Positions 5,916-64,000 of a stretch of 64,000 nt of DNA are shown one piece after another. Each line of letters starts with the position of its first letter. Position 1 is the first letter of the stretch. Made by a program: the position numbers and the translations under genes. The notes under the pieces are model-generated. The model searched no databases. It had not been told where the DNA came from and saw nothing but the letters and a program-made list of their open reading frames with translations. Origin of the DNA: Raillietiella orientalis (Eukaryota); assembly GCA_036172245.1 (NCBI GenBank), contig JAYWIR010000001.1, positions 7,998,001 through 8,062,000 of the forward strand, in the 5' to 3' direction.

Positions 5916-5917
5916 TT

Positions 5918-7655
5918 CCTTACTGGATCACGCCGAGACGTTTATTAAAGTAAACGAGTTGAAAGCAAAGTTCCCAACTGACGACAAAACCAGCAAGATG
6001 GGGAATCAACTGGCACGCAGGCCAAGATAACAAGAGTTGGGAACCGGGTGGGAGATCGAGCAGCAAAGAGAAAGTTAAATGCGGTGGGTTGGAGGAAGGG
6101 TCTTTGGATTCGCAACATGAGGCAATGGGATGAAACCAAAAACACCAAAGGAGTTGCAGAGAAAATGATAATGGGAAAGAATCAAAATAAATAAACAAAC
6201 AAATGAACAACATAAAACAAAATGGAGTGAATCAAGGGAGGGAAAGGGCCGGATTTACTGGGGTCCGCCGTTCCTGACTGTCCACCAACCGGCAGTGGAT
6301 GCTGGTAATCACCTACTTTTCCGCTTCTTCCAGGTGAAGAAACCTTGAAACCGTCCTCATTCTAGGCAGCAGCCACACAGTGGATCTCCCTTCTCTGCGC
6401 AGTCATCTCCATTACCTAGCAGACCTTCACAGTGGCGGGAATGCAACAGATTGTTGCGACTACCAAACCACCTAAAAGCCCGCTGCTCACGAGAAAACAC
6501 TGCAACATGTCCTTCGCAGAATCCTCCATAAGAGGGACGTCTAAAGCCAATCTCCACCACAGGTCACGGAAGACACCACAGTCAGGCAAAAGATGCGGGA
6601 ACGATTCGATCGTTTCGCATCTCTAGCAGTCGAGACAGCTCCTCGGAAACCATGTGTCGACGATAATTACGCTAAAGTCTCCAGTGTGAAAGTAGCAACA
6701 CGTCCTGTTTTCGTCTTAGGAAGAACACCGAGGTGTCCAAACAAGCAGGAAGGCCTACTAGTTCTCCGGGAGGCACACTCAACATTTCACTTTACCAGAG
6801 GAGTCATATAGCCCGGTTCGGAGAAATGGCGGCATGAACCAGTTCCTTTGTCCTCTACCCACCCAAGAGCTTGGTTTCTGTTGCAATTTCAAGTGCAGAG
6901 GAACTTCCACCTTGACAATAGTTAATTGTCATTGCTTGTCCCTAGGGCAAGCAACGCTGCCAAAAAGGATGTGCTGGCTAAGAGATTCCACTTTTTGTCC
7001 TGCTTCACCTCTTCCAGAAAGCGATTCAGCAGCAGTCGCAAGCCTAAAAGATCTTCCGGGAGTACTCCTACATTTTCAGCCCAGGACAAAACAGATTCCT
7101 GCTGCCAGGCATTGAAGTTCATCGGGAGGCAGGAGATCGCATGTTCGGCTTTCAGTAGCGAAGGAAGCTGCCTCAGTGAAAGGCCAAATCCTCTTCTAGT
7201 GTGGAGAAGGTGCGGCAGCAATCAGAGCAATCGTTCGCTCTTAGTGTAGCGCCGAAGGAGGCGTGCAGAAAGACAGCAAGGAGTACATCAGGGTCTGGAT
7301 GATAGAGCCAGCATACGGAATAGTTCCTGCAGTCAGATATTCTCGATGGCCAGGATGCGAAAGCCACCATCCTGGCGCAATGGCAGCAAAGCTTTCAGAC
7401 AAATGCTGAAACTAATGCTGCCTCACGGAACTTTGCGCAGCAAGCGTTTCCCTCGGTCCTTCACCGGATGAAGAGGAGAGCAAACAAAAAACAAAAGGCG
7501 CAGGAGGGGGCAACGAAGCTGTTTCAGATGGAGGCCTGTTTAGCAAAACTAAACTACCATCAAAGGATTAGCAGCACCCTCTGCCTTCTGAAGACAGTTC
7601 AATCATGCCTGTGAATCGCGGAAGAAGGCTAGCGGCATGCTAAGGTACTTGAAAT
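5918..7655 (-). mobile_element. Old, degenerate E/C-like LINE, 3' portion
   Basis: Degenerate 3' motif aataaacgtctcggcgtgatccagt (5921-5946, minus) and CTGCGT stem-loop (~6015). Peptides ISCLPMNFNAWQQESV and GYFKYLSMPL match the E ORF2 C-terminal half. Confidence 0.8.
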
Positions 7656-7659
7656 ACCC

Positions 7660-7866
7660 GCTCAAGTTGTGCCACCCGGGCCTAAGGTTCAGGCCGCACC
7701 CGAGACCCCGACGAACAACGCCGAAAAGGTCGAGGGAAACGGCCAGAAGCCTGAGTGGCTGGTGACAACGGCCAAAAATCAAAAAAAGAACGACGTCTAT
7801 AGAAACTCGCATACCGAAAGAAAAAGAAGCAGGGTCGCGAGATTATTTAAGAATGCAGCGTCGTCG
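7660..7866 (+). pseudogene. ORF1 fragment (Lys-rich linker ending in an ECSV motif)
   Basis: PEWLVTTAKNQKK followed by aagaatgcagcgtc (ECSV) resembles the GWQ..K-rich..ECSVALER region of A/F/D ORF1. Confidence 0.45.
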
Positions 7867-8158
7867 TTTGTTCCACGGCTGCGCCGGGACGTTTATTTCA
7901 AATCGCCTGGGAACTGTGTTCTCAGGCAAGGGGAACAGAAGATGGGGAGGAGTGTACCCGACACGCAGGCCGGGCACACTGAGAGTTCGGAACGGCAGGG
8001 AGGGAACAATAAATAAACAAATATCGTGGGAGGGTGAGGATAGGGGTCTGCAGTTCCATTCGTTCTTTGTCTCAGAACCGGCGGTGAATGCCTGCAATCT
8101 CTGTCCTCACTTCTGCGTCAAGGTGTGGCCACCCGGCAGCCAGTTGCAGATTGCAGGC
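7867..8158 (-). mobile_element. Short 3'-end fragment of a C-like LINE
   Basis: aataaacgtcccggcgcagccgtgg (minus, ~7873-7898) and stem-loop gtgcccggc-ctgcgt-gtcgggtac (~7953-7978). The layout is like the C 3'UTR at 46953-47200. Confidence 0.75.
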
Positions 8159-8406
8159 TGAACTGTCGGGGAATGATGTAGTGAATGCGGACGCGAAGTT
8201 GCTTGTTGCCATCCGAGCACGCCGGGGCGCTTAATATAAATTCTCTAATTTGTGGTACAAGGCCCCACTACGGCCAACAAAGCAGGACCTGCCAGGTCAC
8301 CGGTACTCAGACCGGCACGACTCCCCTCGTCAGCGGAAGGGTATGAAGGGAAAAACAAAAAGAAAAATAAAACAGAAAAACAAAAATTTGGAGGGCAGGG
8401 AAGGGA

Positions 8407-11400
8407 TCAAGGTCCATTGGGAGGAGGATCCATCATTTCCAGGATGCCCTCGTAATCCGTTCGTATAATTCCCAGGTGGGGCCATCTGGTCGCAATCCGC
8501 AGATAGCGGACTGCAAGTACGACGGCATCCCTGTCGTGGTTCGGTCTTCTCACGTCGCTCCAGCACGTCACAATTTCTCGGACACAGCAGAGTGCTGCCA
8601 GGTCGGCGGCTGGTCGCGGGGCGTCCTGCACGAACAGAAGCCGAAAAACGTATCCAGGATGGCTGCACACCTGGACCCGTAGGGAGGTACCAAAACGTTC
8701 CCACAGGGGTCGGAGGGCAGCACAATCGTTCAAAGAGGTGAGGGAGTGTTTCTTACTCCCCGCACCTGATGCAGGAGGGATTCAATCGACCCCTGGTCCA
8801 AGGCTGGCGGCGTGAGCTGCAGGGTAGACCCCAATGCAACAACAGAAGCGCCGAGTCCTACCACTTTAGGCGGAGGATCCTCGAGCCAATGAATATCTGG
8901 GGCCACTTCAGGTCATCCATCCGGATGCTAAGTAGCACGCCCCATCTCATTAGTCCACGCGGAAGGACACTTCGGGTCGAGGCGTCAGCCAGCTGCCCCG
9001 TGGTCTAGCCGCTTATCAGTTTCTCTCTGCCTGCGATACGGCGGGAGACTTTCCACCTAGGCATGCGGCTGCTGTGAGCGCACTCCTCAGAAAGGGCATC
9101 GCCGTAGCTAGTACGGTTGTCTCTGCCCATGTGCTCCTTGCGGGACATTCTAGTATTTTCCGAAGAGTGTAGCGGGCGTAGGAGCAGTGTTGCAGGTATT
9201 TCCACTTGTCGTGGATCTTCTCGTTCATCTTTGCAATACGTGCCAGTTGTCTCCACCAAGCATGCGGATGAGTTGGCGGGGCTACATTCCATCCAGCGGT
9301 TCTCCTTAGCCAGGGTGGCCATGCGTCCCAGAAGGAGGCCGCATCTTTTGACCTTCCTTCCACGGCACAGAAGAGAAGACGCTAGATTTTGCATCCCAGA
9401 TACACGGCTGGCAAGGATGTGGGCCGGAACGCACCATGGAGTGCTCCATAACTTTGCTGCGATGGCCATGGTGCGCCATCGCAGCTGGATCGCCATTCGC
9501 TCCAACGTCAAGAGGCCGAGGCCGCCATCCCGACGTGGAGCACACAAGTCGTTCAACAGGACTCGGGGCCTCTTTTTTCCCCAAAGGGCAATCCGTAGGA
9601 GGTTCTTGGTCCGTTTCCTCAACTTCTGGGGGACGGGCAAACAAAAAGCAGGCGGCGGAGGATGGGAGCCGCGAACACGTTCCACACCGCGGCCCGTTCC
9701 GGAAGGAGAAAATTGTCTTCCAGGAACGGGCCGATCGCCAACATTACATTGCGGAGACGCCCTGACTAGGCCACGCCGCACCGACAGGAACCACCGTCGA
9801 CTTCGCCCTGTTCACCGTAAGTCCGGTCCCGCGGCTAAGCAGATCGAAGAAATCCCCGACCGCCTTCGCCGGGGTGGACATCGGCAACACAAGCAAAAGA
9901 TCGTCGGCGTATGCTGATACGGCGGGCGTGCCGGGGCACGAGCTCGGCAAGGGGACCAAAGTCACCCTGTACGCTCTCAGCACCAACTCAAAGTAGGTGC
10001 TAAAGAGCAGGGGACTGAGGCTGTCGCCCTGCCGTATTCCCCGCCGTACCGGCACGCCGTACGCCATTTGACCTCTTTAAGAGATATTGATCAGCGCGCT
10101 GCGCCAGCAGGAGCGCAGGTAGGTCTGTAGGGAGGGAGGGTAGCCCATGCGTCCCAGGACATCCAGCAGGAGATCCTGGTCCACGCAGTCAAACGCTTTG
10201 TGCAGATAGACTGCCATCGCTAAGGCTCCCTTCCCCACCTGGGAGTCCTGTCCCTGCCCGGCTGACGCCCCCAAAGCGGGGCTGCCAATCCTTCCCTCTT
10301 CCTTTTCTTCACTAGTCTGCACATGAAACCATGTGCTCGCGAAGAAGAGGTGGCCTCCATACTTCGCCCTGGAACAGCGTAAGTCTACTCCGGGCTAATT
10401 ATGGAATTGGCCACCTGCCCGAGACGCGAAGCCCACAGTCCGGCGATCAACTTGGCGTCCGTGTTCACAATTGTGATCGGACGCCAGTTGCTGAGTTCCC
10501 TGAGGTCTCCTCCTTTCGGAAGGAGCCTCACTCTGGCTGACCGAAACGAGGCGGGTACATCGCCTTCATCTCGGATCAGCCTTGTCAACTCAAGCACCAG
10601 GAGTGCCAACTCTGCCGCGAAGCATTGAAAAATCTCCGCAGGCAGGCCGTCTTCCCCTGGTGCTTTCCGCCTCTTGAGCCTTTTGATACCGGCGAGAATT
10701 TCGCCGGTGGTAAAAGGCTCGTCGAGGCTTTCCTTCTCCTCCTCCCCTATTGCAGGGGCACCGTTCCGAAGCAAGCGCCGAGAGGCACCTTGGTCCGGGG
10801 GCGCCCTGGCGTAAAGGGAGGAATAAAAACGCCGCACGAGGTGCCGTATTCTAGCCGGAGCCGAGTGCTCCCGGCCCTGGTCGTCCAGCGAGCTGGCCGA
10901 TCCGGATTGCCAGGCTTGACGTTCGGCCCCGGCTCGGTACTCTGCCAGGCGACGGACATTGGGGGTCCTCTCGTACCGGCGGGCCTGTAAATAGGCCCTA
11001 TGGTTCCGAGCCCCCTACTTAAATCCGGGGGGCAGGCGGTGCAGGGGGAACTCCTCGCAGAACTCGCGGACCGAGGCCTTGAAGAGGTCCCAATCTTTGA
11101 GACTGCGGAGGGTGACGCCTCTCAGGAATTCGCGAAGGTGTTCCTTCGCACCTGAGAGTCGCGTCCAGTCCCCAGGCAGACGCCACGCTTTGGATAGGGG
11201 GCCCTTGTCGCGCGGGCACACCTCGAATATCAACCGGAAATGGTCAGACAGCTCTGACGCAACTTTCTCCCGTTTGCTGACCCGTGAACACAGGTCGACA
11301 TCCAGGAAGACGTGGTCGATGCTGCTGACCATTTCCGAAAGATCCCCTAACAAGTTGCGCGTGCGCATGGCGGCGCACAACACGTTAGCCGTCCGTTCCT

Positions 11401-11899
11401 GTGCGTGTGGCTCACCTGATAGCAGGCGGAGATTAAAGTCTCCTGCTATCAGGTGAGCCACGCGCACGTTCGCTTCCACCAGCCAGTCGTGCTTCACGCT
11501 TTCCAGGAACGCCGCGCGTTCCCGTTACCTGTTATAACCGCTCGGGGCGTATACGTTTGTTACGACGAGGTCGATCGTGTCGGACCATCTGAGAATCAGC
11601 TGCCCGACACGACCGGCTTCGTCGAAGCGCACGCCCTTCACGGCAGCGTCGACCGCCGGTTTCATAAAAAACGCGACGCCGCAGGTGTATCGGGTGCCGC
11701 ATTGCCACACCAGCCGCCCTTCTGCGATCCTCTCGATCTCCTGGGCGTTCTCCCCGGTGATCACGTGGATCTCCTGCAGGAGTGCCAGGTCGAAGTCACG
11801 CAGGGTGGCTGCCGTGTCCCGTCTGTTGCTGTCGTCGCGCAGCCCGTGGACGTTCCAGCATGCCACACGCAATCGACGGCGACAGGCGATCCCAGGTGT
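8407..11899 (-). pseudogene. ORF2 APE-RT of A1, disrupted
   Basis: WNV, LQE, NVYAP, GDFN, SDH, APGEDG, WRPI, KAFD, QGDSLSP and YADD are in order. Stops at 11525, 11015 and 10385, frameshifts, and a deletion near 9760. Confidence 0.92.
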
Positions 11900-13920
11900 T
11901 ATTCCCGGGAAAGTGGCAATGGGGCTCCCGCCACCTGGTCGGGCGGGACGGATGGAGGCATGGGGGCACCGCCCAGCGGTTCTCCCACCTCCATGGGGGC
12001 CGATTCCTCGGCGGACCGCAACGGTTGAAGGGAGCATGCTTCACGCACCTGCTTCCCCTCTTCCTTGGGGGCCGATTCCTTGACTGCGTTGGACGGCAGG
12101 TGGGAGCGGTTCTCAGCTGACTGCTCCCCCTCTTCCATGACCATCTTCTCCGCAGGCTCCACCGGTGGAAGGGGGAGGCAATGCCCTGCCTGCTCCCCCT
12201 CCTCCATGGGGGTGGCCGGCTGCTCGGTGGCGGAGGGTGGGAAAATTCCTTCCTCCGTTCCCACGCTGCCGGCTTCCCCCTCGGCTGCCGGTACGTCCCC
12301 CTCGCTCTTCGTCGGGATGCGCCTCTTGGGATTCTTGGACTTCCGTCCAGTCTTCTTCGGAGGCGCCTCCGTGGAAGAGGACGCACTTCCGGCATCCGGG
12401 TCGTGGTCACCTGTCGGAGGTGCCCTGGTCGCGGCCGGCCTTCGCAAGGCCTTTCGCGCGCCGTTCTCACGGTCGGCGAGTTCGGCCGCGAGCTCTTCCG
12501 CCGCCTGCTGGAAGGCGGCCTCGTCGATCGCGGCGAGCGCGTCGCGCGGTTCCCCCTCTGTTTGCACAGAGGGTTCGCCTTCCGCAATCGCGTTATCGTC
12601 GGCGTCGACGCGGGGGATATCGCCCCCGGTGGCGGTCTCGGGTACCTCCACACGCTCCAAAGCGACCGAACATTCGCGGATCAACGCGCGGCTTTGTCTC
12701 CTATTTAAAGGAGACGTCGCGGGTTCCGCTGTCGACCCTTCGGTTTTCTTAATTTTCTTGGCTTTAGGCTTCGCCTTCTGCCAGCCTTCTCTCTTTTCAG
12801 CGTCGTCGGTAGATTCCACGACCGGCGTTTGCTGCACGGTCTCGGGCTCCGGCTGTGGGTTCCGCCTCACGGGTGCCTTCGCAGGGTTTTCCGTAGCCTC
12901 CGCGCGTTTCCCTTTGGAATTTTTCAAGGCAGCGGGAGCCGGAGGTTCGCGCTTCGGGCACACTTTGCGGAGGTGGCCCTTCTCTCCACAGTGGAAACAC
13001 TGGATGTGAGGGCACCGCTTTTTCAGGTGCCCTGTGGCATCACAGTGTCCACAGTACTTGGGCTTGCCCACGTACCAGACGTCGACGGTCTCGTTGCCGA
13101 CGTCTAGTTTGTGGGGTAGCCCACCGTTTTCGTGGACGGTTACACGCGCACCAGCCATGCCACTAAACAGTCTTCCGTAACTCTGGAAGACGTTGGGCTT
13201 GGGCCATAGCGCGTGAACCGTTCCGTATTTTCCGAGTTCCTCCTGCACGTCGGCTTTCGACATGCGGAGGGTGACTCCCGTGAGGTGCGTCACCACGGAG
13301 CGATCCTCCGTTACCAAGAAAACCTTTCGGCCTTCCAGTGTGATTGGCGTATTCAGGAGGTGTTGAGCAAGGCTTGCATTTCTGCAAGTCAGCTCCACCC
13401 GCTGACCACAACTCAACACGGAAAGACCTTCCAGGTCTTCCTCTTTTACGTTCAACCGCTGCAACTCCCTTTCGAAGTTGCGAGCGGTGTTCCCGACAAA
13501 CAGATTGCCTATCTTGTATATCAGGGACGGCTTGTATCCCTGCTCCAGGTAGGCTTTCTGCTCGGCGAGGGCTGCAGGAGATGGGGCTGCAGCCACTGAA
13601 CTCCAGGTCTTCGGCGATGCCGAAGACGCATTCGAGGGTGCAGGTGCCCCCTTTTTCAAGGAGGCGGTTGCGCCCTTTTCCAGGGTTGCGGTTGTCCCCT
13701 TTTTCAAGGGGGCGGTTGCACCCTGTTCCAGCGGGGCTTTTGCCCCCTTTTTCAAGGGGGCCTTTGCCCTCGCTTCCGAGGCGGCGGTTGCCCCCTTTTT
13801 CAGGGGTGCGGCTGCCGTCGCCTCCGTGGGGGCGATTGCCCCCACCTCCGTGGGTTGGGGAGAGGAGCAAGCCTCTCCCCCTCCTATATCCATCGCGGTG
13901 TCCTCAGGCATTTCTGCCAT
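11899..13920 (-). CDS. ORF1 gag-like nucleic-acid-binding protein (A1, 673 aa)
   Basis: Open from MAEMPED; two CX2CX4HX4C knuckles (CGHCDATGHLKKRC, CFHCGEKGHLRKVC); long acidic, disordered tail. Confidence 0.9.
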   Translation of the reverse strand: MAEMPEDTAMDIGGGEACSSPQPTEVGAIAPTEATAAAPLKKGATAASEARAKAPLKKGAKAPLEQGATAPLKKGTTATLEKGATASLKKGAPAPSNASSASPKTWSSVAAAPSPAALAEQKAYLEQGYKPSLIYKIGNLFVGNTARNFERELQRLNVKEEDLEGLSVLSCGQRVELTCRNASLAQHLLNTPITLEGRKVFLVTEDRSVVTHLTGVTLRMSKADVQEELGKYGTVHALWPKPNVFQSYGRLFSGMAGARVTVHENGGLPHKLDVGNETVDVWYVGKPKYCGHCDATGHLKKRCPHIQCFHCGEKGHLRKVCPKREPPAPAALKNSKGKRAEATENPAKAPVRRNPQPEPETVQQTPVVESTDDAEKREGWQKAKPKAKKIKKTEGSTAEPATSPLNRRQSRALIRECSVALERVEVPETATGGDIPRVDADDNAIAEGEPSVQTEGEPRDALAAIDEAAFQQAAEELAAELADRENGARKALRRPAATRAPPTGDHDPDAGSASSSTEAPPKKTGRKSKNPKRRIPTKSEGDVPAAEGEAGSVGTEEGIFPPSATEQPATPMEEGEQAGHCLPLPPVEPAEKMVMEEGEQSAENRSHLPSNAVKESAPKEEGKQVREACSLQPLRSAEESAPMEVGEPLGGAPMPPSVPPDQVAGAPLPLSRE

Positions 13921-14008
13921 TCGACACCGCAGATGCTTCACACACAATCACAATCCAAATAAATCGCTTTACACCAGGCGCGGAGGAGCGCTACAAAAAC
14001 ACGTCCGC

Positions 14009-16370
14009 ACGCCAAGTTGATAGCAGGGCTATGGGCTTCGCGTCTGGTGTAGGTGGCAGAATCCGTAATTAGCCCGGAGCACACTTATGCTGTTCCCGGG
14101 CGAAGTATGGATGCTAACCTCTTCTTCGCAAGCACATGGGTGCACCTGCAGAGAAGAGAGAAGAAAGGGATAGGGAAAGTCGGCATCCCCACATTGGGGC
14201 CGCCAGCCGGGCTGGGAAGGGACCCCCGGGCGGGGAAGGGGGCCCTAGCGCTCGCAGTCGATCTCCACAAGGCGTTCGACTGTGTAGACCAGGACCTCCT
14301 TTTGGAGCTCCTCCTGGTCCTTCCCACCCTCCCTGACTTCCTACCTGCGCTCTTGCTGGCGGAATGCGATGATTACCGTCTCTTTCAGTGGACAGAAGGT
14401 GTATGGCGTGCCGGTGCGGCGGGGCATAAGGCAGGGAGATAGCCTCAGCCCACTGCTCTTCAGCACCTACTTTGAGTTGGTGCTGAGAGCGTACAGGGTG
14501 ACTTTGCAGCTTTGCCGAGCTCGTGCCCCGGCACGCCCGCCGTAGCAGCGTACGCCGACGATCTTCTGCTCTTGTTGCCAATGTCCACCCCGGCAAAGGC
14601 GGTCGGTGACTTCTTCGATCTGCTCAGCCGCGGCACCGGACTGCAGGTTAACAGGGCAAAGTCGTCGGTTGTGCCAATAGGTGCGGCGTTGGCAAGGCAG
14701 CAGGACTGGGTCCGTCTGGGGATACCCACGGCGAGGTGCTTCAAGTACCTTGGTGTGCCGTTAAGGGACTACTCCCCTGCGTAAGCGTGGTGCAGCTGCC
14801 TCCTAAAAGTCGAGACGGCGATCGGCCCGTTCCTGGAAGGCAAGTTTCACTTGCCGGAACGGGCCGCGGTTTGGAACGCCTTCGCAGCCTCCATCCTCCG
14901 CCCCTTTCTTTTTGTTTGCCCTTCCACCGTGGAATCGAAGAAGAGGACAAAGGACCTCCGCCGTATCGCCCTTTGGGGCAAGCGGAGACCCCTAGTCCCT
15001 CTGAAGGACTTGTGCGCTCCGCGTCGGGACGGCGGTCTTGGCCTCCTGACGCTGTAGCGCGTGGAGAAGCAGCTGCGGTGGCGAACCCTCACCATCGCAG
15101 CGAAGATGTGGATCACCCCTTGGTGCACTCCAGCCCGCCTCCTGGCCAGCCGTGTGTCCCGGTGCGATGGACTCGCTTCTTTTCTTCTGAGCCGTGGCCG
15201 GAAGATGCGAAGATGCGGCCTACTGCTCGGGCGCATGGCAACATTGGCCAAGGAGAACAGCTGGATGGTTTGCTGCCCCGCCAACTCCCCCGCCTGGCTG
15301 GAGTAGAACATCGGAACGTGGGCAGTGGTGAATCAGAAAAGCCACGAAACGTGGAATCGTCTCCGATGCAGCCCCTACGCCCGCTGCACTCTGAGGAATC
15401 TCCTGGAGAATCCAGCCAGAAGCACGTGGGCAGAGACAACCTGCCTGGCTACGGCGCTGCCCTTCCTGAGAAGGGCGCTACACAGCAGTCGGACGCCAAG
15501 GTGGCAAGTCTCCTGCTGCATCGAGGGACATGAGAAGAGAATCATCGCCTGGACCATGGGTCAACTGGCGGACGCCACGACCCCGAGGGCCCAGCCGCGA
15601 GGACTAAGAAGATGGGGCGAGCTGCTGGCCATCCCTATGGATGTGCTGAAGTGGCCCCACTTCTTCAGGAATCCAGGATCCTGCCCCTTAAGTGGAAAGA
15701 GTCGGCGTTGCTGTTGTTGCATTGGGGTTTGCCCTGCAACGCACGCCGTTCTCACTGGAGAAGAGGAGTTGTGGATCCTGCGTGTGTCAGGTGCGGAAAG
15801 CGGGAATCGCTCTCCCACCTGATTGTTTACCTTGCTGCCCTTCGCCCCCTTTGGGAACGGTTTGGGACGATCCTCGGTCTCCTTACGGGCAGTTTCCCTA
15901 GAGACGTTCTACGGCTTCTCTTCGCGAAGGACGCCCTGCAGCCAGCCGCAACCCTTGCAGCCTTGTGCTGCGTCCCAGGCATCGTGGCGGCATGGAGCGA
16001 CACCAACAAGGAAGGAGTGGGTCAACACGCGAGGGATGTCATCCCATATTCCCAACGCTTCTTGCGGAGAGCTGCCGGATGGCCCCAACTGGGGAATATA
16101 CGGATGGACATCGAGGGCTTCCTTCAACGGATGGGCCCTCCTCTCAGCGAACAGTGATTCTTTTCCCTGCCCCCCAACCTTATTTGTTTGTCTGCGTTTT
16201 TTGTTTTTATTTTTTTTTTTTCCCCATCCCCTTTCGCTGACGGGGAGTGCCACGCCGGGCTGCGTCCCGGGGTCCCGGTAGTTCCCGTGCATAAGGCCGT
16301 GAGCGGGGCCTGGTACCGCGATTGTAGAGTTTTTCATAAATAAACGCCCCGGGCGTACCCGGGTTGCAAC
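14009..16370 (+). mobile_element. Subfamily F copy 1, distal half (RT from AKLIAG to the 3' end), degenerate
   Basis: AKLIAGLWASRL, KAFD, QGDSLSP, YADD and CVRCGKRESLSHL; 3' end aataaacgccccgggcgtacccgggttgcaac at 16339-16370. Confidence 0.9.
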
Positions 16371-16479
16371 GTCGAATCCCCGCTGTGGAGAGAGGACGTG
16401 CTTTTCCTGCGCTCCGCCTGCGTGGCAAGGCGAGTGGTTTTTTCTTGAGTGATTTGTGCGTGCATATCGTCGGTGTCCG

Positions 16480-28370: not shown

Positions 28371-28430
28371 CGCCTGGTGTAAAGCGATTTATTTGGATTG
28401 TGATTGTGTGTGAAGCATCTGCGGTGTCGA

Positions 28431-44652: not shown

Positions 44653-44740
44653 GCGGACGTGTTTTTTCCGCGCTCCTCTGCGCCTGTTGTAAAGCGTTCT
44701 TTTTCGGTAGTGGTTGTGTGTGGAGCATCTGCGGTGTCCA

Positions 44741-46762: not shown

Positions 46763-46952
46763 CACCTGGGCTCGCCTGTCGCCGTCGATTACGCGTGGCC
46801 TGCTGGAACGTGAACGGGCTGCGCGACGACGGCAACAGACGGGACACGGCCGCCACCCTGCGTGACTTCGACCTGGCACTCCTGCAGGAGATCCACGTGA
46901 TCACCGCGGAGAACGCCCAGGAGATCCAAAGGATCGCAGGGGAACGGTTGAT

Positions 46953-48033: not shown

Positions 48034-48274
48034 GGGGGACGGTTGATTGTCACCCGGGTGCGCCGGGGCGTTTATTATAAACTATCCGGGAACAGGGTTC
48101 CCGGACAAAGGGGAAAACAAGAGACGAAGGGGGTGGGATCCCCGACACGCAGGTCGGTATGCCGAAAGTCCGGAACGGTAGGGAAGGGACCACAAACACA
48201 CTACTATATAAAAAAATAAAAGAAAAATATGGAGGGCAGGGGACAGGGGTCTTTGGTAAATCCGTTCCTTCCTT

Positions 48275-53756: not shown

Positions 53757-55115
53757 GGGACGGTTGATGTGGCAATGCGGCACCCGATACACCTGCGGCG
53801 TCGCGTTTTTTATGAAGCCGGCAGTCGACGCAGCCGTGAAGGGCGTGCGCTTCGACGAGACCGGTCGTGTCGGCCAGCTGATTCTCAGGTGGTCCGACAC
53901 GATCGACCTCGTCGTAACAAATGTGTACGCTCCGAGCGGTCCTACCAGGTTCTAGGAACGTAAGGCGTTCCTGGAAACCCTGAAGCGCGACTAACTGGTA
54001 GAAGCGAACGTGCGCGTGGCTCACCTGATAGCGGGAGACTTTAATCTCCGTCTGCTATCAGGTGAGCCACACGCACAGGAACGGACGGCTAACCAGTTGT
54101 GCGCCGCCATGCGCACGCGCAACTTGTTAGGGGATCTTTCGGAAATGGTCAGCAGCATCGACCACGTCTTCCTGGATGTCGACCTGTGTTCACAGGTCGG
54201 CAAACGGGGGAAAGTTGCGTCGGAGCTATCTGATCATTTCCGGTTGATATTCGAGGTGTGCCCGCGCGACAAGGGCCCCCCATCCAGGGCGTGGCGTCTG
54301 CCTGGGGACTGGACGCGACTCTCAGGTGCGAAGGAACACCTTCGCGAATTCCTGAGAGGCGTCACCCTCCGCAATCTCGCTTGAAACCCGGGTGAGCCGG
54401 GACGTTTATTCTCACGAATAAACCTATATAATCTGTGACTGGACCAGTAGTCCAGCCACGCCCTGGAAAGATATGCTTGCCGGGCTACCGGTGCGCAGAC
54501 CGGCGCGGTCGACCTCGGCAGCAGAGGGGAGGGGGAACGAAACAAAAAGAAAACAAAAAAATAAACAAAATCAGGGAGGGAGCGGGAAGGGATCACAGTC
54601 TGCTGTGAGGGTCCGTCATCCTCTGGAGGATGCCGGCAAGCTGTTTCTGCGTGTGTGGTTCCAGATGGGGCCATCGCGTCGCCATCCTGAGGAAACGGGC
54701 GGCATACACGTTGGCATCCCTGTCGCTGGATCCTCCCGTCGCTTTGCTCCATGCCACGACGATCCCGCGTAGGCAGCACAGGGCTGCAAGCGAGGCCGCT
54801 GGAGGCAGGGCGTCACGGACGAAGAGGGGGCGCAAAGCGTCTCTGGGGTTGCCTCCGGGGATCCCCAGGGCTGCGGCAAAGCGTTCCCACAAGGGACGGA
54901 GGGCAACACAATCCACTAACAGGTGGGGGAGGTATTCCCTCTCCCCGCACTCGACACAATTAGGGTTGACACCCCCCCGCGTCCAGTGGTGTCGGCGGGC
55001 GTTGCAAGGAAGCCCCCAATGCAACACCAGCAGTGCCGACGGTCAGACGTGTTCTCTGCGCGCTCCTGACTCGCTCGACTTTATTGGTGTAGTGCGGTGC
55101 ATCAGTGGTCGGGGG

Positions 55116-56715
55116 ATGGCAGAAATGCCTGATCCCGCCACTAGTGAATGTGGGGTGGGGGCCGGGCGAACGTCCCCCGTACCCATGGAGATAGGGGCAC
55201 CTGCCCCGAAAGCTTCGTCCCTCGCGCCGGCGAGGGACTACAGCGCCGCGGTCGCCGCGCCATCTGCAGCGGCCATCGCCGAGGCCCAGGCCTACAAGGC
55301 CTACAACTACAACCCGAGTCTGCTGTATAAGGTAGGCCGGGTGTTTGATGACCGTGTGGCGCGCTCCTTCGAGAAGGAGCTCCACCGTTTGAACGTTAAC
55401 AAGGAGGATCTGCTGGGTCTCTCCATCCGCAGCGGGGGACAGCATGTCGAGTTGACCTGCAAAGAAGCAGGGTTGGCGCAAAGACTGCTGCGAACCCCCG
55501 TCAGGGTCGAGGGCCGCCAGATCTTCCCTGTCCCGGTGGACAACTCAATAGTTGTCCACCTCCGTGGAATCACCGTGCGGATGTCACCGAGCGCCGTTAG
55601 GGCTGAACTCAGCAAATTCGGCACCGTACACGCGCTGTGGCTGAAGCCCAACAGGTTCCGTACTTATGACGGACTCCTGAGCGGACTCGCCGCGGCACGT
55701 GTGACTGTGAATAAGGACATTGGGGTTCCCCATAAACTAGTAGTCGACGGAGATTCTGTCGACATCTGGTATCTGGGGAAACCCAAATACTGTGCGTTTT
55801 GTGATGGTACGGGGCACGTGAAGAAACGCTGCCCCAACATCACCTGCCGCAAGTGCGAGGCAATCGGGCACACGGAAGAAGTGTGCCCCAAAAAGACTTC
55901 GCGCGCGCCGGCTGCTGCCGTGAGCGGCACGAACGCGAGCAAGAAGCTTGGCAAGACGAGGCCGCCGTCTAAAAATACGGTTGACCCGGAGCCAGCCAAA
56001 AAGGGCATCCCGACCACCCCGTCTGCAGAAACGCAGGCAACCGAGGTGGAAGGAGAAGAGCCTGGCTGGCAAAAGGTCAGTCCAAAGAAAAAGATAGAAA
56101 AAGAGGACGTAAATAATAAAAATAAAGTCCCTGCAAAAACCGCGAAACCCGCGAAAAAGCAGGGACTGAAAAAATGCACGGTCGCACTGGAGCGCCTTGC
56201 AGACGCCGAAGTGCCGTGCGAACAGGACGTTGCCGTGTGCAACAACGCTGACAGCCCCGTCGCTGTGCAAACAGCGTCCGAGGGCTGCGGCGAGGGGGAG
56301 CCGCGATGACGCTGGCTTTGCAAAAGCCGCCGCCGAGCTCGCCGCCAGTCAGCAGCCTCCCGCAAAGGTCGGGAAGAAGGCCGTTCGACGTCCGGCCGAG
56401 AGGAGGGGGACCGGGACCTCGGACTCGGACCCGGAGACCGGACACGCACCATCCGCATCTGCACCCCCGAGGAAGACCGGAAGGGAAATCCGTAACCCGA
56501 GGAGGATCGTCTCCTCCGAGGAAGGGGAATCCTCCGGAAACGAGGGTGCGGCGAGCGTGGGAGAGATGGACACGAGTCCTGAACTCCCACGATCGGTCGA
56601 GACGGAGCCGATGGAGACGGAAGGGGTCGTCGAGCCGCCCCCCACCGCACAGGAGAAAGCCGGCGTCCCGCCCCTAGGCGAGGCGGGAGACGCAGCATCA
56701 CTTTCCCAGCAGTAA
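55116..56715 (+). pseudogene. ORF1 of D, one frameshift near 56300
   Basis: MAEMPD start; CAFCDGTGHVKKRC and CRKCEAIGHTEEVC; C-terminus in ORF 56197..56715 ending in TAATG. Confidence 0.85.
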
Positions 56716-59700
56716 TGCCGGGACTCGCCACCTGCCGTCAAATACGCATCGCCAGCTGGAACGTCAACGGGCTTTGCGATGACGGCAGGAGACGAGACAT
56801 AGCTGCCACCTTGCAAGCCTTCGACCTCGTGCTGCTGCAGGAGATCCATGAGATTTCCGCAGAACATGCGCGGGAGATCGAACGGATAGCAGGTGGTCAG
56901 CTTATGTGGCGATGCGGCCACCACCGTACGCGCGGAGTCGCTTTCCTTCTGAAGCCTGCCTTACAACGCGCGGTGCGGAAAGTTCGTTTCGATGAGGCAG
57001 GTCGGGTCGGGCAAATCACCTTCAGGTGGTCCGACTCCATCAATCTCGTCGTCACGAACGTGTACGCGCCGAGCGGCGGTCACGCGCGCGTGGCACGGAC
57101 GGCGTTTTTCCGTGCGTTCAAGCGCGACTGGCTGTCGGAGGCAGGCGCGCGCACGGCGCACCTGATAGCCGGCGATTTTAATATTCGCCTGCTATCAGGT
57201 GCGGCGAGGACAGAGGCCACCCCGGTTAACGAGATGTGCGCTGCGGTGCACGCATCCAACTTGTTAGCCGGGGATACCGGGATGGAACGGAGCGTGGACC
57301 ACGTCTTCCTCGACGATCACCTGCGCTGTCGCGTGGGCAGGCGAGGTAAGATACAGTCCGCAGTCTCCGACCCCTCCCGTGTGGAACTCGTCATTCTCCC
57401 GCGCGACAGGGGGCCCCCCGCGCAGGCGTGGCGTCTACCGGGGGACTGGCTGACCAAGCCAGGCGCAGCGGAACACCTCCGCGCGTTCTTGCGAGGTTTC
57501 AGCCTGCAGACGCTCGACGACTGGGACGATTTGAAAGTCTCGGTGCGAGAGTTCTGCCAACAGTTCCCCATGGACCGTCTCCCGAAAGGATTTGGAGAAG
57601 GTGTTCGGAACGATAGGGCTTACCTGCAGGCCCGTCGTTACTCCCGAACACCAGACGTCCGAAGACTGGCGGAATTTAAAGCCGGTGCCGAGCGGCAGGC
57701 CTGGCAATCGGGGTCGCCCAGCCTGCTGGACGACGAAGGCCAAAAGCACTCGGCCCCGGCAGAGGTGAGTAGCCTAGTGCACGGCTATTATTCTTCCCTG
57801 TACACCAGGGTGCCTCCGGACCGGGAATTTTCCCAATTCTTGCTTCCGGACGGTGCCCCGGCGATCGGGGAAGAAGAGAGAGTACGCCTGGACGAGCCTT
57901 TCACGATGGGTGAAATCATCACCGCAATCGGGAAGCTCAAAAGGCGGAAGTCACCGGGGGAAGACGGCCTGCCCGCGGAGTTTTTTCAGTGCTTCGCGGC
58001 GGAGCTGGCTCCCCTGGTGCAGCGGCTAACGCTGCTGATCCGGGAGACAGGAGACGTTCCCGCCTCCTTCCGATCGGCACGTATGCGTCTCCTACCGAAA
58101 GGAGGAGACTTACGGAACCTCAGCAATTGGCGTCCGATTACCGTACTGAACGCGGACGCCAAGCTGGTTGCGAAGCTATGGTCGGAGCGAATGGGGCGGG
58201 TGGCGGAAAGCTTCATCAGCCCGGAGCAGACCTACGCTGTTCCCGGGCGAAGCATGGACGCCAACCTGCTCTTCGCGAACACCTGGTTCGAACTTCAAAG
58301 AACCAGAATGAATGGAGGGAACAAGGTCGGCAGCCCGATTTGCGGGACGTCCGCTGGTGGTTCGCGGGATAGTCGGGAGAGAGAAGGGGCCCTCGCGGTC
58401 GCTGTCGATTTGCGGAAAGCATTCGACAGTGTCGACCAGGAGCTCCTGATGGAGCTTCTGGAGCGCTTGGGCTTCCCGGCCTCCTTATTGGCCTTTCTGC
58501 GCTCTTGCTGGCGCGACGCGCTGACCAACATTTCTTTCAGGGGAAGGAACGTGTTCGGTGTGCCGGTGCGCCGCGGGATACGGCAGGGTGATAGCTTGAG
58601 CCCCTTGCTCTTCAGCACCTACCTCGAGTTGGTGCTGAGGGCATTCAGGGAGACTCTTGGTCGCCTGCCGCGCGTGTGCCCAGGTACACCGGCCTTGGCG
58701 GCGTATGCGGACGATCTTCTGCTGCTGCTCCCCATGTCCACCCCGGCGTCGGCGGTCGAAAACTTTTTCGAGCTGCTGCGTCGCGGGACGGGACTGGAGG
58801 TGAACAGAGCAAAGTCGTCCGTTGTTGCAGTCGGTTCCTCGTGGGCAGGGCAGCTAGACTGGTCTCACTTGGGGATCCCCACGGTACAGTACCTCAAGTA
58901 CCTCGGTGTGCCGTTGGGGGACTACTCCCCAGCGGTACAATGGTCTTGCTGCCTCCAAAAGGCCGAGAGAGCGATCGGCCCGTTCCTGGATGGCAAGTTC
59001 TTCTTGCCGGAACGGGCCGTGCTGTGAAACACTTTCGTGGCCCCCCTGTTTCGCTCCTTGCTTTTTGTTTGTCCCCCACCCCGTGGTGTGAGAACACGTA
59101 CAAAGGACCTCCTCAGAATCGCCATCTGGGACAGAGGAAGGCCCCGCGCGCATTGGAAGGACTTGTGCGCCCCTCGTCGCGATGGGGGCCTTGGCCTCCT
59201 CACGCTGGAGCGCCTCGAACTGCAGCTGCAGTTCCGAACAATCGCCCTAGTGGCGAAGTTGTGGAGCGCCAGCTGGTGCGAGCCTGCACGATGCCTGCTT
59301 CAGCGAGTCGGCGGCTGCGCGGGACTGTCTACCTTCCTAACGCGCCGCAAACGCCGGTACCTGTTCCACTGTGGACTGGCTCTTCGGCGAGTGGCGAAGC
59401 TGACCAGGAAGAACACCTGGATCTCCTGCCGGCCCGCGAACGGCACTTCCTGGTTGCAGGAAAGCCTTCGCACGTGGGCCCAGATCGAGGAAGCGAGCCC
59501 GGAGTTGCGGCAGCGAATGCTGCACTCCTATCATAAGAGCCGCTCGCTGCAGGACATCATCGTGCAGCCCGCCTTGAGTGCGTGGGCTGAGAGGACCTCC
59601 CTTGCCACAGCTCTGTCCCACCTCAAGGAACATCTGGGCAGTAGCCAGCCGGCCATGTGGGAGATCCGGTGTACGATCAGGGACACTGAGAAAGAACAAG

Positions 59701-60281
59701 GTGGTTGGACCACGGGTCAGCTTGCTGATGCCGCGATCCCAAGTTCCCCACCGAGAGGACTGTTGCGCTGGGGCAAGCTGCTGTGCATCCCGCGGGATGA
59801 ACTCGAGTGGTCCCCAGTGCTGAGGAATACTCGGGCCCTCCCCCTGAAGTGGCAGGAGTCGGCGTTCCTGGTGTTGCACTGGGGACTCCCCAGCAACGCC
59901 CGCCGCTCTCATTGGACGAGGGGGGTTGTAGACCCAAACTGTGTCAGGTGCGGGGAACGAGAAACTCTCCCGCACCTGCTCGTTGACTGTGTTGCCCTCC
60001 GGCCCCTGTGGTTGCGCTTTGCAACAGCCGTTGGTGCACCCTTGCACGCTCCCAGAGACGTTTTAAAGCGCCTCTTCGTGCGCGACGCCCTTTCGCCTGC
60101 CGCAGCCCTTGCAGCCCTCTGCTGCCTACGAGGGATTGTAGCGGCTTGGAGCACCGCCACTGGTGGACCGAACGATAGGGACATCTTGTGCTACGCCCTG
60201 CGCTTCCTAAGGACGGCAGCCAGATGGACCCATCTGGGACACATGCAGTTTGAACTTGCCGGCATCCTGCAAAGGATGTAG
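56715..60281 (+). pseudogene. ORF2 of D with a single nonsense codon and SDH changed to SDP
   Basis: ORFs 56715..59027 and 59037..60281 are in frame (Trp codon to TGA); the APE catalytic His is replaced. Confidence 0.92.
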
Positions 60282-60500
60282 AGGACGTCTCCAGCGGAAC
60301 GTGATCCCTTCCCCAACCCCTCCCTGCTTTTGTAAATAGTGTTTTCTTTTTGCTTTTTTCTATTTGTCCCTTCCCCCTCCGCTGCCGAGTCGACCTTGGG
60401 AGCCTGCGTGCTGCCCACTCGGCGAGTTCAGAAGAACATGTTCTGAACACTGTAGCGGCGATAGCCCTACACTTGCTTGTTTATTTTTTTTTATTAAAGA

Positions 60501-60530
60501 AATAAACGCCCCGGCGCACCCGGGTGTAAA
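60501..60530 (+). terminator. Conserved 3'-terminal AATAAA plus CCCGG/CCGGG hairpin (example copy)
   Basis: Present at 12 element 3' ends, three of them degenerate; no poly(A) tail follows. Confidence 0.7.
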
Positions 60531-63500
60531 AGCAGTGCCGACTGTTGCCACTTCATGGGGAGGGTGCGCGAGTCCATGAGCACCGGGGGCCACTCGAGAT
60601 GTTCCTCTGGAACATCCAGTAGCTCTCCCCAGCGCAAGAGTTCATTTGGGGTGGTCTTCGGGGTCGCAGCGTTGGTGAGCTGACCCGTTCTCCAATCCCC
60701 GATCTTCCTTGCCCTGCTGGCGATCTTGACAGTAACCTCCCATTGTGCCGCGACGTCGCTGCCCAGATGTTCCCCTAGGGTAGGCAGCACCGCAGCAAGG
60801 GAGGTTCTTTGTGCCCACGCTCTCCTTCGGGGATCCTCGATGATTTCTCGGAGCGTGCGGTGGGCATGCGGCCCAAACAGAGCTATTCGCTCGTGTTGCG
60901 GGCTCTGCTCCTGAATCATCGCCCACGTGCGCACGGTTTCCTGCAGCCAGGCAGGACCGTTCGCGGGGCGTACGAGGATTCGCGCCGAGTTGTTCTTCAC
61001 GAGCTTGGCTGCCCTCCGAAGTTGAAGTCCGCAGTGGCAGATGGGGCTTCAGAGTGCAAAGTAGGACGAGAGTCCCGCATTGCCGGTGGCTCGCTCGACG
61101 AGGAGACGTGCAGGGAGGCACCAAGGGGTGCACCAATTTTCTGCCATAAAGGCGACAACTCGGAACTGGAGCTGTAGCTCCAGCCGCTCCAACGTCAGGA
61201 GGCCCAGACCACCATCCCGACGAGGAGCGCACAAGTCCGAAAGACGGACTCGGGGCCTCCCGTTGCCCCAAAGGGCGATCCTCAGGAGGTCCTTCGTCCT
61301 CTTCTTTGACTCCGCTGAGGGGGGGCAAACAAAAAGCAGGGAGCGGAGGAGAGGAGCCGCGAACGTGTTCCAAACCGCGGCCCGTTCAGGCAGGAAAAAC
61401 CTGCCGCCTCGGAACGGGCCGATAGCCGTCTCTACTTTTTGGAGGCAGCCGGACCACGCTTCCGCAGGGGAGTAGTCCCCCAACGGCACACCAAGGTACT
61501 TGAAGTACCTCACCGTGGGGATCCCCAAACGGACCCAGTCCTGCTGCCCTGCCCACGCCGCACCAACTGGAATCACGGACGACTTCGCCCTGTTCACCGT
61601 AAGTCCGGTTTCCCGATTCAGCAGGTCGAAGAACTCCTCGACCGCCGCAACCGGGGTGGACATAGGGAGCAGCAGCAAAAGGTCGTCCGCGTATGCTGAA
61701 ACGGACGGCGTACCGGCACAGTCGTGCAGCAGGTGCGCCAGAGTTCCCCTGTACGCTCTGAGTACCAACTCAAAGTAGGTACTGAAGAGCAAGGGGCTCA
61801 GGCTGTCTCCCTGCCGGATGCCACGCCGCACAGGCACGCCGTGCACGGTCTGCCCGCTGAAAGTAACGTTGATGAGCGCGTCGCGCCAGCAGGAGCGCAG
61901 GTAGGCCAACAAAGAGGCCGGGAAGCCCAAGCGTTCCAGAAGCTCCAGAAGGAGATTCTGGTCGACGCAATCGAATGCTTTCCGCAAGTCGACTGCGACC
62001 GCAAGGGCTCCCTCCCCCACCCGACCATCCGACCCCCTGCCGGCGCACGCACCGGAATTCCGGCTGCGCACCAAGCTCCTTTCATGTTGGAGCTCTAGCC
62101 AGGTGGAAGCGTGGAACAGGTTCGCCTCCATGCTTCGCCCGGAAACAGCATATGTCTGTTCCAGGCTGATGAAGATGTTGGCAACCCGTCCCAGACGCTC
62201 TGCCCAAACCTTAGCCAGCAACTTGGCGTCCGCATTCACTATTGTGATGGGACGCCAGTTGTTCATGCTCCTCAGATCTCCTCCCTTAGGGAGGAGCCGC
62301 ACCTTTGCCGAACGAAACGAGGCGGGAACGTCACCTGTTTCGCGTATCAGCAAGGTGAGTTGCTGTACCAGGGGGAAAGCTCAGCCGCGAAAGTTTGAAA
62401 AAACTCCGAGGGCAGGCCGTCCTCCACTGGAGCCTTTCGCCTCTTGAGCTTTCCGATGGCCGAGAGGATCTCGTCCATCGTGAAAGGCTCGTCGAGGGTC
62501 TTGCTCTGCTCCTCCCCGATCGCTGGAGCGCCTTCCGGAAGTAGGATTCGTGAGACGTTCCTCTCCGGAGGTGCCCTAGCATACAGGGAGGAGTAGTATC
62601 TCCGCAGCAGGCCGCGGATTTGGGCAGGTGCCGAGTGCTCCTGGCCCCGATCGTCCAGTAAGCCGGCTGATCCGGACTGCCAGGCTTGTCTCTCGGCTCC
62701 CGCTTTGTATTCCGCCAGCCTGCGGATGTCGGGGGTCCTGGCGTAGCGACGGGCCTGCAGGTAGGCTCGTTCGTTACGGACCCCGGTCCCAAAACCCGTA
62801 GGTAAGCGGTGCAGAGGGAACTGGTCGCAGAACTCCTGGACCGACCGCTTGAAGCGGTCCCAATCCTGGAGTGTCCGCAGCCTGAAGCTCCGTATGAACG
62901 TGCGGAGATGTTCCGCCGCGTCCGGGAGCTTCAGCCAGTCCCCTGGGAGACGCCACGCTGACGAGGGGGGGCCCCTGTCGCGCGGATGGATCTCGAGGAC
63001 TAGCGGGCGATGGTCGGACAGCTCGCACGGTAACTTGCCGCGCCTGCCCACGCGAGGGCACAGGTGCTCGTCAAGAAACACGTGGTCAATGCTGTCTTCC
63101 ATCCCCAGTGCACTGGCCAACAAATTACAGGTGTGCACCGCCATGCACACCTCGTTGACCAGGTCACGCCCGGGATTCTGCCCATCTGGTTTCAGGCGAA
63201 CGTTGAAATCGCCTGCAACCAGATGGGCATTCCGCACGCCTGCTTCGGTCAGCCAGTCTCGCCGGAGGGCAAGGAAAAACTCTTTCCTCGCCCTCCTGGA
63301 CATCAGGTCCTTGCCGCTCGGTGCGTACACGTTCGTGACGATCAGATCGATCGAGTCGGACCACCTGAGAGTCAGCTGGCCGACACGACCGTGATCGTCG
63401 AACCGCACGCCTCGAGCCACGGCCTCGACGGCTGGCCGAAGCAGGTAGGCGACACCGCAACTTTTCGCTCTCCCACACCTGTACCATAGCCGCCCTCCGG

Positions 63501-64000
63501 AGATCCGTTCGATCTCTTCCGCTTGTTCTGCAGAGATCACATGGATCTCCTGCAGCAGCGCAAGGTCGTAGGACTCCAGATGGGCGGATATGTCTCGTCT
63601 CCTGCCGGCGTCTGTCATGCCGTTCACGTTCCAAACGGCGATGCGCAGACGACGGCGGGAGGAGATTCCCGGCATTACTGCTGGGAAGATTAAGGTGTGG
63701 GGGAGCCCTCCTCTTGCGAGGCGGGCGGGATGTCCATGGGGGTTTCGGCCTTCTCAGGCACCTGAGGCACCTGTTCGGCCTCTACCCCCTCCATCCCCTC
63801 CGTGTCCGCGCGTGGGAGTCTCTCGGGCGACGTGTCCCGAGAGTTTCCCACGCTCATGGCACCCTCGCTTGCGGAAGCCATCTCTTCCCCTTCGACATGG
63901 GAGACGAGCTGCCTTGGCTTTGTGGACTTACGTCCAGCCTTCTTGCGCGGTGCCGTGGAAACGGAGGCTGCGCTTCCGGCCTCCACCTCGGGGTCGGAAG

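Follow-up and report, generated by a model that had tools for sequence, protein, structure and literature searches.

We analyzed a stretch of 64,000 nucleotides from Raillietiella orientalis (NCBI GenBank assembly GCA_036172245.1, contig JAYWIR010000001.1, positions 7,998,001 to 8,062,000 of the forward strand), here called the window, which contains an array of long interspersed nuclear elements (LINEs) inserted into one another. An initial annotation of this DNA had proposed that it harbors a series of LINE subfamilies, designated A to H, each targeting its own site inside the coding sequence of its relatives. We found that positions 5918 to 64000 consist solely of nested L1-like LINEs on both strands, with a first open reading frame (ORF1) carrying CCHC motifs and a second (ORF2) carrying apurinic/apyrimidinic endonuclease (APE) and reverse transcriptase (RT) domains. 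The G+C content of this region is 50 to 65%. The left flank (1-5917) has 41 to 46% G+C and a CpG observed/expected ratio of 0.70 to 0.73; an ORF search of this flank gave no useful ORFs, and it holds one faint old LINE trace (4549-4994). The elements and fragments, several of which interrupt one another, are the following, with ORF2 positions in amino acids (aa).

5919..7865, minus strand: X1, decayed fragment of an old LINE (ORF2 aa ~655-1177) with 14 stops and 49.5% G+C
7866..8160, minus strand: X2, last ~300 bp of a C-related LINE (ORF2 aa 1176-1203 plus 3' untranslated region [UTR])
8204..14008, minus strand: A1, full-length A element, antisense in H1 at DAKL
8161-8203 (~45 bp of the 5' part) and 14009..16371, plus strand: H1, F-like host of A1, ORF2 from aa ~491 to the 3' end
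16372..16387, strand not assigned: 16-bp remnant, TCGAATCCCCGCTGTG, antisense of the RGF(G) site, present once in the window
16388..25988, plus strand: F1, intact 5' end, interrupted by E at 18825/24730 and ended by B1 at 25988 (ORF2 aa 588)
18826..24729, plus strand: E, full-length, in sense orientation in F1 at GDFN
25989..28342, minus strand: B1a, B-type 3' half (ORF2 aa ~491-1203 plus the 3' end), antisense at KAFD of F1
28343..34230, plus strand: A2, full-length A element, antisense at DAKL, between B1a and B1b
34231..37527, minus strand: B1b (listed as F at 37527 in the initial annotation), F-type 5' half with 5' UTR, ORF1, and ORF2 aa 1-503
37528..39546, plus strand: H2, F-like host, beginning exactly at ORF2 aa ~305 and ending at aa 1124, with an internal gap of aa 895-1037
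39562..~40590, minus strand: U1, a further subfamily, with its 5' end (~40590) inside the tail of the ORF1 of H
40591..41889, minus strand: H, 5' UTR and ORF1 of subfamily H, with its 5' end at 41889 (+/-5 nt), antisense just before LMRETG of H3
41890..42285, plus strand: H3, 396 bp of a C/E-like ORF2 (aa 458-588) that hosts H as well as B2
42286..44652, minus strand: B2, B-type 3' half, antisense at KAFD of H3, 94% identical to B1a
44653..54378, plus strand: A3, in B2 at DAKL (antisense); Ct and C interrupt it at 46952/53758, and G ends it at 54378 (ORF2 aa 285)
46953..48029, minus strand: Ct, C copy truncated at its 5' end (ORF2 aa 922-1203), in A3 at GxRL (antisense)
48048..53757, minus strand: C, near full-length (lacking ~100 nt at its start), inserted in the copy of the target that Ct had duplicated
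54379..64000, minus strand: G, 3' end at 54379 antisense at LRNL of A3, split by D and running off the window
55041..60531, plus strand: D, full-length, antisense in G at SALL

From this map, we counted 17 insertion events, 16 of which lie in LINE sequence. The nesting is five layers deep: H3 hosts B2, which hosts A3, which hosts G, which hosts D. The 3' end of X1 at 5919 is the sole boundary between LINE and non-LINE DNA within the window, so that the earlier statement that no well-preserved copy lies in unique DNA has very little to stand on (a single non-LINE boundary, at 5918).

C carries the only intact ORF2 among the copies (48278-51886, minus strand, 1,203 aa). Pfam domains Exo_endo_phos (aa 31-238, E 6e-16) and RVT_1 (aa 479-750, E 1e-22) were found in this protein, and the same domain pair is present in E and D. 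A zf-CCHC domain was identified by Pfam in the ORF1 of A2, A3, and B1b, and the translation of the C ORF1 shows two CX2CX4HX4C knuckles. When the Protein Data Bank was searched, the best solved relative was human L1 ORF2p (E 1e-43), compared to 1e-16 for R2 proteins. Judged from the ORF2 domains, the closeness to L1 ORF2p, and the CCHC motifs of ORF1, the elements are assigned to the L1 group of APE-type retrotransposons lacking long terminal repeats (non-LTR elements). A protein search with the C ORF2 gave 84 matches, the best at 28% identity, and the best homologs carry RVT_1, Exo_endo_phos, and zf-RVT. No close relative was found among these 84 matches, the named ones being distant (Dictyostelium, Microbotryum, and Riccia). 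Matches in a protein atlas were to generic LINE clusters only, and an Rfam search gave no match.

The 5' and 3' termini of the elements are conserved. Eight 5' ends (A1, A2, A3, D, E, F1, F2/B1b, and H) carry GGACGTG(T/C)TTT, ~10 nt or less from the junction, with ...GCGCTCC. In total, 12 3' ends were recognized, of the form AATAAACG(C/T)CCCGG-N5/6-CCGGGT followed by 6 to 8 nt and ending in 0 to 4 A, and a poly(A) tail is absent from the 3' ends of the window elements. The 3' motif is intact in A2, B1, B2, C, Ct, D, E, G, and H1, degenerate in A1, and decayed in X1 and X2. The 5' terminus is conserved in the eight elements named and C is short by ~100 nt only; the clearly 5'-truncated elements are Ct and H1 only, X2 being uncertain. 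At its 3' end, X2 is 65.8% identical to C, compared to 48 to 54% for seven other 3' ends, and it is possibly a remnant of the host that received the H1 and F1 insertions. The GC stem at the 3' ends is conserved in sequence, without covariation, and its folding energies are only modestly below those of shuffled sequences. We also observed AATAAA ~25 to 28 nt upstream of each 3' end, with the CCCGG-loop-CCGGG stem directly after it (e.g., 34186-34230 and 48048-48092), a position that would fit a host using AAUAAA polyadenylation signals. The terminal patterns were defined as AATAAACGYCCCGG-N5/6-CCGGGT for the 3' terminus and GGACGTGYTTT for the 5' terminus. A metagenome scan with the 3' pattern returned 119 loci, none with blastn or tblastn similarity to the window, and the pattern resembles ordinary GC hairpins.

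All junctions listed in the initial annotation exist, each within 1 nt, and its coordinates needed small corrections only: the 5' end of A1 lies at 14008 instead of 14009, the 3' end of D at 60531, and the 3' end of B2 at 42285/42286 (ambiguous A/T). The names that it had given to the sites were also confirmed by mapping onto ORF2, in the numbering of the intact copy C:

C site, ~aa 76-80
E site, aa 169-172 (GDFN)
G site, aa 285
F site, aa 305-309 (RGFG)
H site, ~aa 455
A site, aa 497-501 (DAKL)
B site, aa 585-588 (KAFD)
D site, aa 1065-1068 (SALL)

For seven of the eight named subfamilies, the insertion is antisense to the host ORF2, and for E it is in sense. Three further points depart from what the initial annotation had implied. 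Not all insertion sites are within ORF2, as the U1 junction (~40590) falls in the tail of ORF1. Not every breakpoint is an insertion, since those at ~39550 and in H2 (gap of aa 895 to 1037) are deletions; U1, which adjoins the 3' part of H2 (stretch 39286-40590), has lost all but its 5' UTR and ORF1 and is 3' truncated by deletion, and neither this truncation nor the internal gap of H2 is producible by target-primed reverse transcription. Finally, B1 does not lie in one host, its flanks corresponding to aa 588 of F1 on one side and aa 305 of H2 on the other.

Target-site duplications had been reported at 9 to 14 bp. They are indeed present, in a range of 8 to 14 bp, E being the shortest:

A2, GCAACTTGGCGT at 28331 and 34231, 12/12, with two further occurrences, both at empty homologous sites (in G and F1)
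A1, ATCAACTTGGCGT / AGCAACTTCGCGT, 13 nt, 11/13
C, ATCAACCGTCC, 11/11, in the window only at its two flanks
Ct, 14 nt, 13/14
D, GCAGTGCCGAC at 55030 and 60532, 11/11, in the window only at its two flanks
E, TTTCAATC at 18818 and 24730, 8/8 (9 with an ambiguous A), in the window only at its two flanks

B, G, and H have one junction each and hence no checkable duplication.

Four subfamilies occur repeatedly, and each of them was found at its own site: three copies of A at DAKL, two copies of B at KAFD, two copies of C in tandem at GxRL, and two 5' ends and one 3' end of F at RGFG. These repeats fall on the same nucleotide (for F, within 1 to 3 nt) and share their orientation. Identical 3' junctions are seen in A (2/2), B (2/2), and C (2/2), and identical 5' junctions in A (3/3). 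We did not detect any cross-use, each of A, B, C, and F being present only at its own site (nine junction-bearing copies). By a rough estimate, a second insertion into a 6-kb element would match the first to within 1 nt, orientation included, with a chance of ~3 in 12,000, and five such repeats were seen. The proposed subfamily-specific sites are thus supported for A, B, C, and F, which recur in the window, and D, E, G, and H are single events.

Two of the repeats are tandem arrangements. C and Ct are placed head-to-tail with identical 3' junctions. Ct is 5' truncated at aa 922, the two are separated by a duplicated copy of the target, and the arrangement is that of a regenerated site hit a second time. 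Similarly, the 3' end of H1 adjoins the 16-bp RGFG remnant, which sits between it and the 5' end of F1 and resembles a target copy shared by two tandem insertions. The 5' ends of F1 (16388) and B1b (37527) both follow antisense CGAATCCC plus 7 to 8 nt, in different hosts, the 5' end of B1b adjoining the RGFG site of H2 in antisense.

Shared junctions could also result from a few ancestral insertions that were copied by segmental duplication, unequal crossing-over, and gene conversion in a repeat array, for instance a centromere-like LINE island. Two pairs of segments are colinear across junctions (9772-15066 with 32563-27291 at 92.9% and 25947-30629 with 42244-46939 at 89.7%), and the mosaic identity of A1 and A2, the chimeric flanks of B1, and the deletions at ~39550 and in H2 would be in line with such copying. 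However, the identities of flanks and inserts conflict strongly with it, and they do so in both directions. The first 1,200 bp inside A1 and A2 are 99 to 100% identical, while their 5' flanks are only 66 to 83% identical and their 3' flanks share ~45 bp, beyond which they are unalignable. The hosts of these two copies, H1 and B1a, are different subfamilies with a synonymous divergence (dS) of 1.03. B1 and B2 are 92 to 100% identical inside and 61 to 68% in their flanks, and their hosts, likewise different subfamilies (F-type versus C/E-like), have no mutual blastn match. The ~40 nt common to the B1 and B2 flanks at the junction are a conserved AVDLxKAFD stretch, which is equally found in the uninterrupted H1, E, and C. 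In A2 and A3 the relation is reversed, with 81 to 83% identity inside and up to 98% in the flanks, the opposite of what a single duplication would give.

The substitutions that separate the copies also speak against copying within the array. The ratio of nonsynonymous to synonymous substitution (dN/dS) is 0.37 for the ORF1 of A2 and A3 (proportions of differing sites pS 0.281 and pN 0.120, both ORFs open), 0.33 for aa 500-700 of B1a and B2 (Fisher p 2e-7), 0.34 for aa 166-480 of A1 and A2 (p 7e-5), and 0.41 for C and Ct (p 0.03). This divergence arose under purifying selection, whereas duplicates of dead copies would have changed neutrally; the copies therefore derive from separate active lineages. 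Decay by deamination as the source of the A2/A3 differences was rejected, since transitions are about as frequent as transversions. In addition, the C/Ct and H1/F1 tandems, with a shared target copy and one 5'-truncated member per pair, do not follow from unequal exchange. We therefore consider it unlikely that copying of a few ancestral insertions accounts for the array. The initial annotation had named descent of all shared junctions from one segmental duplication as the outcome that would contradict it; the flank and insert identities of A1/A2 and B1/B2 oppose such descent, and the comparison of B1 plus A2 with B2 plus A3 is less sure. Altogether, A made at least two and probably three independent insertions, and B, C, and F made at least two each. 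Within the window, the reuse of their own sites by A, B, C, and F does not stem from copies of one ancestral insertion.

One insertion might, alternatively, have spread among host copies by homologous recombination through the flanking LINE homology, in a manner reminiscent of intron homing. A1 and A2 are identical over 2.5 kb including a stop codon, and many similar host copies lie nearby, both of which such a spread would explain. The identity of the flanks at the junctions (66 to 74% for A1/A2 and 61 to 68% for B1/B2) is, however, too low for homologous exchange, the 3' flank of A1 retains only ~45 bp of host, and A2/A3 as well as B1a/B2 differ by selected substitutions. We regard this route as highly improbable.

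Empty homologous sites are present for every target. Among the A sites, three of the seven with GGACGCCAAGTTG are filled, compared to none of the five variant sites, and the filled ones share at least 13 nt. The A subfamily carries its own target word, and an A-in-A insertion was not seen in the window. Ranked by conservation among ORF2 windows, the sites are at percentiles 98.7 (A), 81 (E), 75 (B), 49 (C), 47 (D), 46 (F), 36 (H), and 19 (G). A choice of the most conserved motifs as targets was therefore rejected for five of the eight sites (19th to 49th percentile), only A being in the top 2%. The sites look like subfamily-specific words and not like universal motifs.

A K-C-(G)-A-A-Y core, noticed post hoc, directly follows the 3' junction of A, B, C, and the F-like H1, i.e., in four of the seven subfamilies with a 3' junction. 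It has a frequency of 0.0045 per position, with 528 starts in the LINE region, and suggests an ancestral core with diverged outer contacts. It also bears on another explanation, namely, that regional tethering to the chromatin of the cluster, as has been suggested for elements that favor centromeres, combined with a common loose nick preference that leaves few usable sites, creates hot spots and no subfamily-specific recognition. Self-nesting Zepp/ZeppL clusters are described at algal centromeres (PMC8226300, PMC9940879), and both the core shared by four of seven subfamilies and the antisense orientation of seven of eight would agree with tethering. Nevertheless, each repeated site is used by a single subfamily (nine junction-bearing copies of A, B, C, and F), the repeats fall on the same nucleotide despite 528 possible core starts, and the filled A sites have at least 13 nt in common. 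Tethering thus appears quite unlikely to us as the source of the pattern.

We consider it probable instead that each subfamily inserts by endonuclease-directed targeting of its own word inside sibling coding sequence. According to this model, the APE endonuclease of each subfamily would nick one ~10- to 20-bp sequence that happens to sit in the sibling coding region, the nicked strand being the antisense strand of the host ORF2 in seven of the eight named subfamilies. Reverse transcription would start at the nick, from an RNA ending ~25 nt after AATAAA, just past the conserved GC hairpin, and a second nick 8 to 14 bp off would lead to the target-site duplication. The insertion would restore its own target, allowing a tandem second copy as in C/Ct and H1/F1, and every insertion would destroy the host copy. 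Since targets of this length are hardly found outside LINE copies, the family would pile on itself, here in five layers. The anatomy of the insertions (precise 3' junctions, duplications of 8 to 14 bp, 5' truncation, and tandem reinsertion) fits target-primed reverse transcription by a sequence-specific APE endonuclease. Site specificity set by the endonuclease, with transposons among the targets, is described as established for Tx1- and R1-clade LINEs (PMC4640811, PMC4494074, PMC1919474, PMC1950540).

We infer both that specificity is determined by the endonuclease, and not by tethering or RNA-target pairing, and that the rule is valid genome-wide. Pairing between the RNA 3' end and the target was rejected as the main determinant: the A 3' end has GCAAC like its target, but the whole tail is kept in the insert. 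The endonuclease domains of subfamilies with different targets are 47 to 73% identical, and for A/F, C/E, and D/G this domain has diverged further than the linker and RT domains. As a side observation, the alignment of the C APE region (51158-51886, minus strand) to the human L1 endonuclease (L1-EN) ends at L1-EN residue 178. All subfamilies have ~8 residues between NLL and DHVFLD, which corresponds to the region of the T192-S202 hairpin loop of L1-EN, a loop reported to be implicated in target choice (PMC1950540).

A number of findings weigh against endonuclease-directed targeting as the explanation. Gene conversion or recombination is active in the cluster, so that some junctions are not independent. 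The copies A1 and A2, inverted and 14 kb apart, show successive blocks of 100%, ~94%, and ~82% identity, and they are 100% identical over ~2.5 kb that includes a shared nonsense codon, TAA, at ORF2 codon 141. This identity reflects either gene conversion between inverted copies or a defective master moved in trans, and the latter would loosen the link between the endonuclease of an element and its target. B1 is chimeric, with an F-type 5' half, a B-type 3' half, and flanks from two hosts, which means that at least one recombination reshuffled junctions; most simply, this was a crossover through the A copy, unnoticed as all A copies share the same duplication. B1a plus A2 and B2 plus A3 are colinear over 4.7 kb, making this pair of A junctions less surely independent than A1 compared to either, and a duplication followed by conversions keeps some plausibility for this pair. 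D, E, G, H, and U1 represent one event each in a single 64-kb window, and B has no observable 5' junction or duplication. Four perfect A target words are empty (10471, 25705, 38088, and 62242, in A1 itself, F1b, H2, and G, respectively), and the K-C-(G)-A-A-Y core could equally represent a common, looser nick preference. Finally, X1 adjoins DNA without detectable LINE homology, and nearly all copies contain stops, C being the one with an intact ORF2.

The insertion pattern invites comparison with LINEs of known specificity. The Tx1 clade, known from animals according to PMC4494074, includes Tx1L, which inserts into Tx1D, the crocodilian Tx1-Mar, which inserts into Mariner-N4_AMi, Tx1-8_Crp and Tx1-4_AMi, which insert into LTR retrotransposons, and Tx1-9_AMi, which inserts into Harbinger (PMC4494074). 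Like the elements described here, these are APE-type LINEs of the L1 group, in which related families have precise targets in other mobile elements, at a fixed position and orientation, and in which specificity shifts between close relatives. In our single window, insertion is likewise sequence-specific and the 3' junction precise, as in this clade, the likeness being one of insertion pattern. Unlike the Tx1 targets, which are DNA transposons, LTR elements, small RNA genes, and microsatellites, the target here is sibling LINE coding sequence, and each hit kills a relative.

Zepp/ZeppL elements of green algae (centromeres of Chlorella, Coccomyxa, and Chlamydomonas) are L1-type LINEs reported to occur nearly exclusively in clusters that arise by nested insertion into existing copies (PMC8226300, citing Higashiyama 1997), mostly as arrays of 5'-truncated 3' ends and, in Chlamydomonas, from a single ZeppL family (PMC9940879). 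The window likewise contains a LINE-only cluster formed by nested insertion. In contrast to Zepp, and compared by description only, its array is not mostly 5' truncated, nine elements being at or within ~100 nt of full length and two clearly truncated, and at least nine subfamilies coexist in it, each inserted at a site exact to the nucleotide (D, E, G, H, and U1 seen once). A further difference lies in the tail, since Zepp has a poly(A) tail and the window elements end in 0 to 4 A. With the R1/R2-type rRNA LINEs, whose lineages each have a 28S/18S site of their own, the elements share the use of one multicopy, conserved target by several related site-specific lineages and the tandem and 5'-truncated copies at a regenerated site; the R1/R2 target, however, is a host gene kept by host selection, while the targets in the window are kept only by selection on other transposons. 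R1 specificity is reported to be set by the endonuclease (PMC1919474). A literature search, with most subscription journals, Repbase Reports, and supplements outside its scope, yielded no account of LINE subfamilies that split up sites in the ORF2 of one another. Transposon-targeting Tx1 LINEs and self-nesting Zepp were already known, and what would be new here is that several sibling subfamilies partition their own ORF2.

The usual explanation of site-specific LINEs is a truce with the host, in which multicopy host genes or inert repeats are hit. We tentatively put forward, as a possibility we would rate somewhat below even, a LINE radiation whose integration has turned on itself, the endonuclease of each lineage being tuned to a different 10- to 20-bp word in the ORF1/ORF2 of its relatives, in a closed "food web" within LINE-only islands. 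If this were true, the safe harbor would be the coding sequence of the family itself, harmless to the host and a site of direct competition among transposon lineages, with each new copy knocking out a competitor while restoring the target it used. The target words would then be shaped by an arms race between lineages, and this would explain both the sites outside the most conserved motifs and the empty perfect sites, and self-feeding islands could yield centromere-like regions built of LINEs. Should the pattern extend genome-wide, the family would offer a natural series of related APE endonucleases (47 to 73% identical) with at least four, perhaps eight or more, long recognition sites, of use for studying DNA reading and for engineered targeted integration. 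It would also provide a simple growth mechanism for LINE-only islands like the algal Zepp centromeres and a test case for transposon arms races.

Some additional features of the array were observed. The left flank together with the oldest LINE copies (1-7865) has 41 to 50% G+C and a CpG observed/expected ratio of 0.70 to 0.74, and the younger LINE copies have 57 to 64% G+C and a ratio of 0.95 to 1.07; as they decay, old copies seem to approach the flank in composition. An altered genetic code as the source of the in-frame TAG and TAA codons was rejected, since the stops replace GAG, TGG, CAG, TAC, and other codons. At ORF2 codon 523 (C numbering), the conserved Q of SPE-Q-TYAVPG, TAG replaces CAG in 4 of 12 copies from three unrelated subfamilies (A1, ~10390; A2, ~31960; F1b, ~25790; H3, ~42090), which could result from recurrent mutation or conversion. 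Lastly, the N-terminal part of the A-type ORF1 contains 24/48-bp tandem repeats (unit ~GGCAACCGCCCCCTTGAAAAAGGG) in all three A copies (13631-13843, 28535-28724, and 44848-45030).

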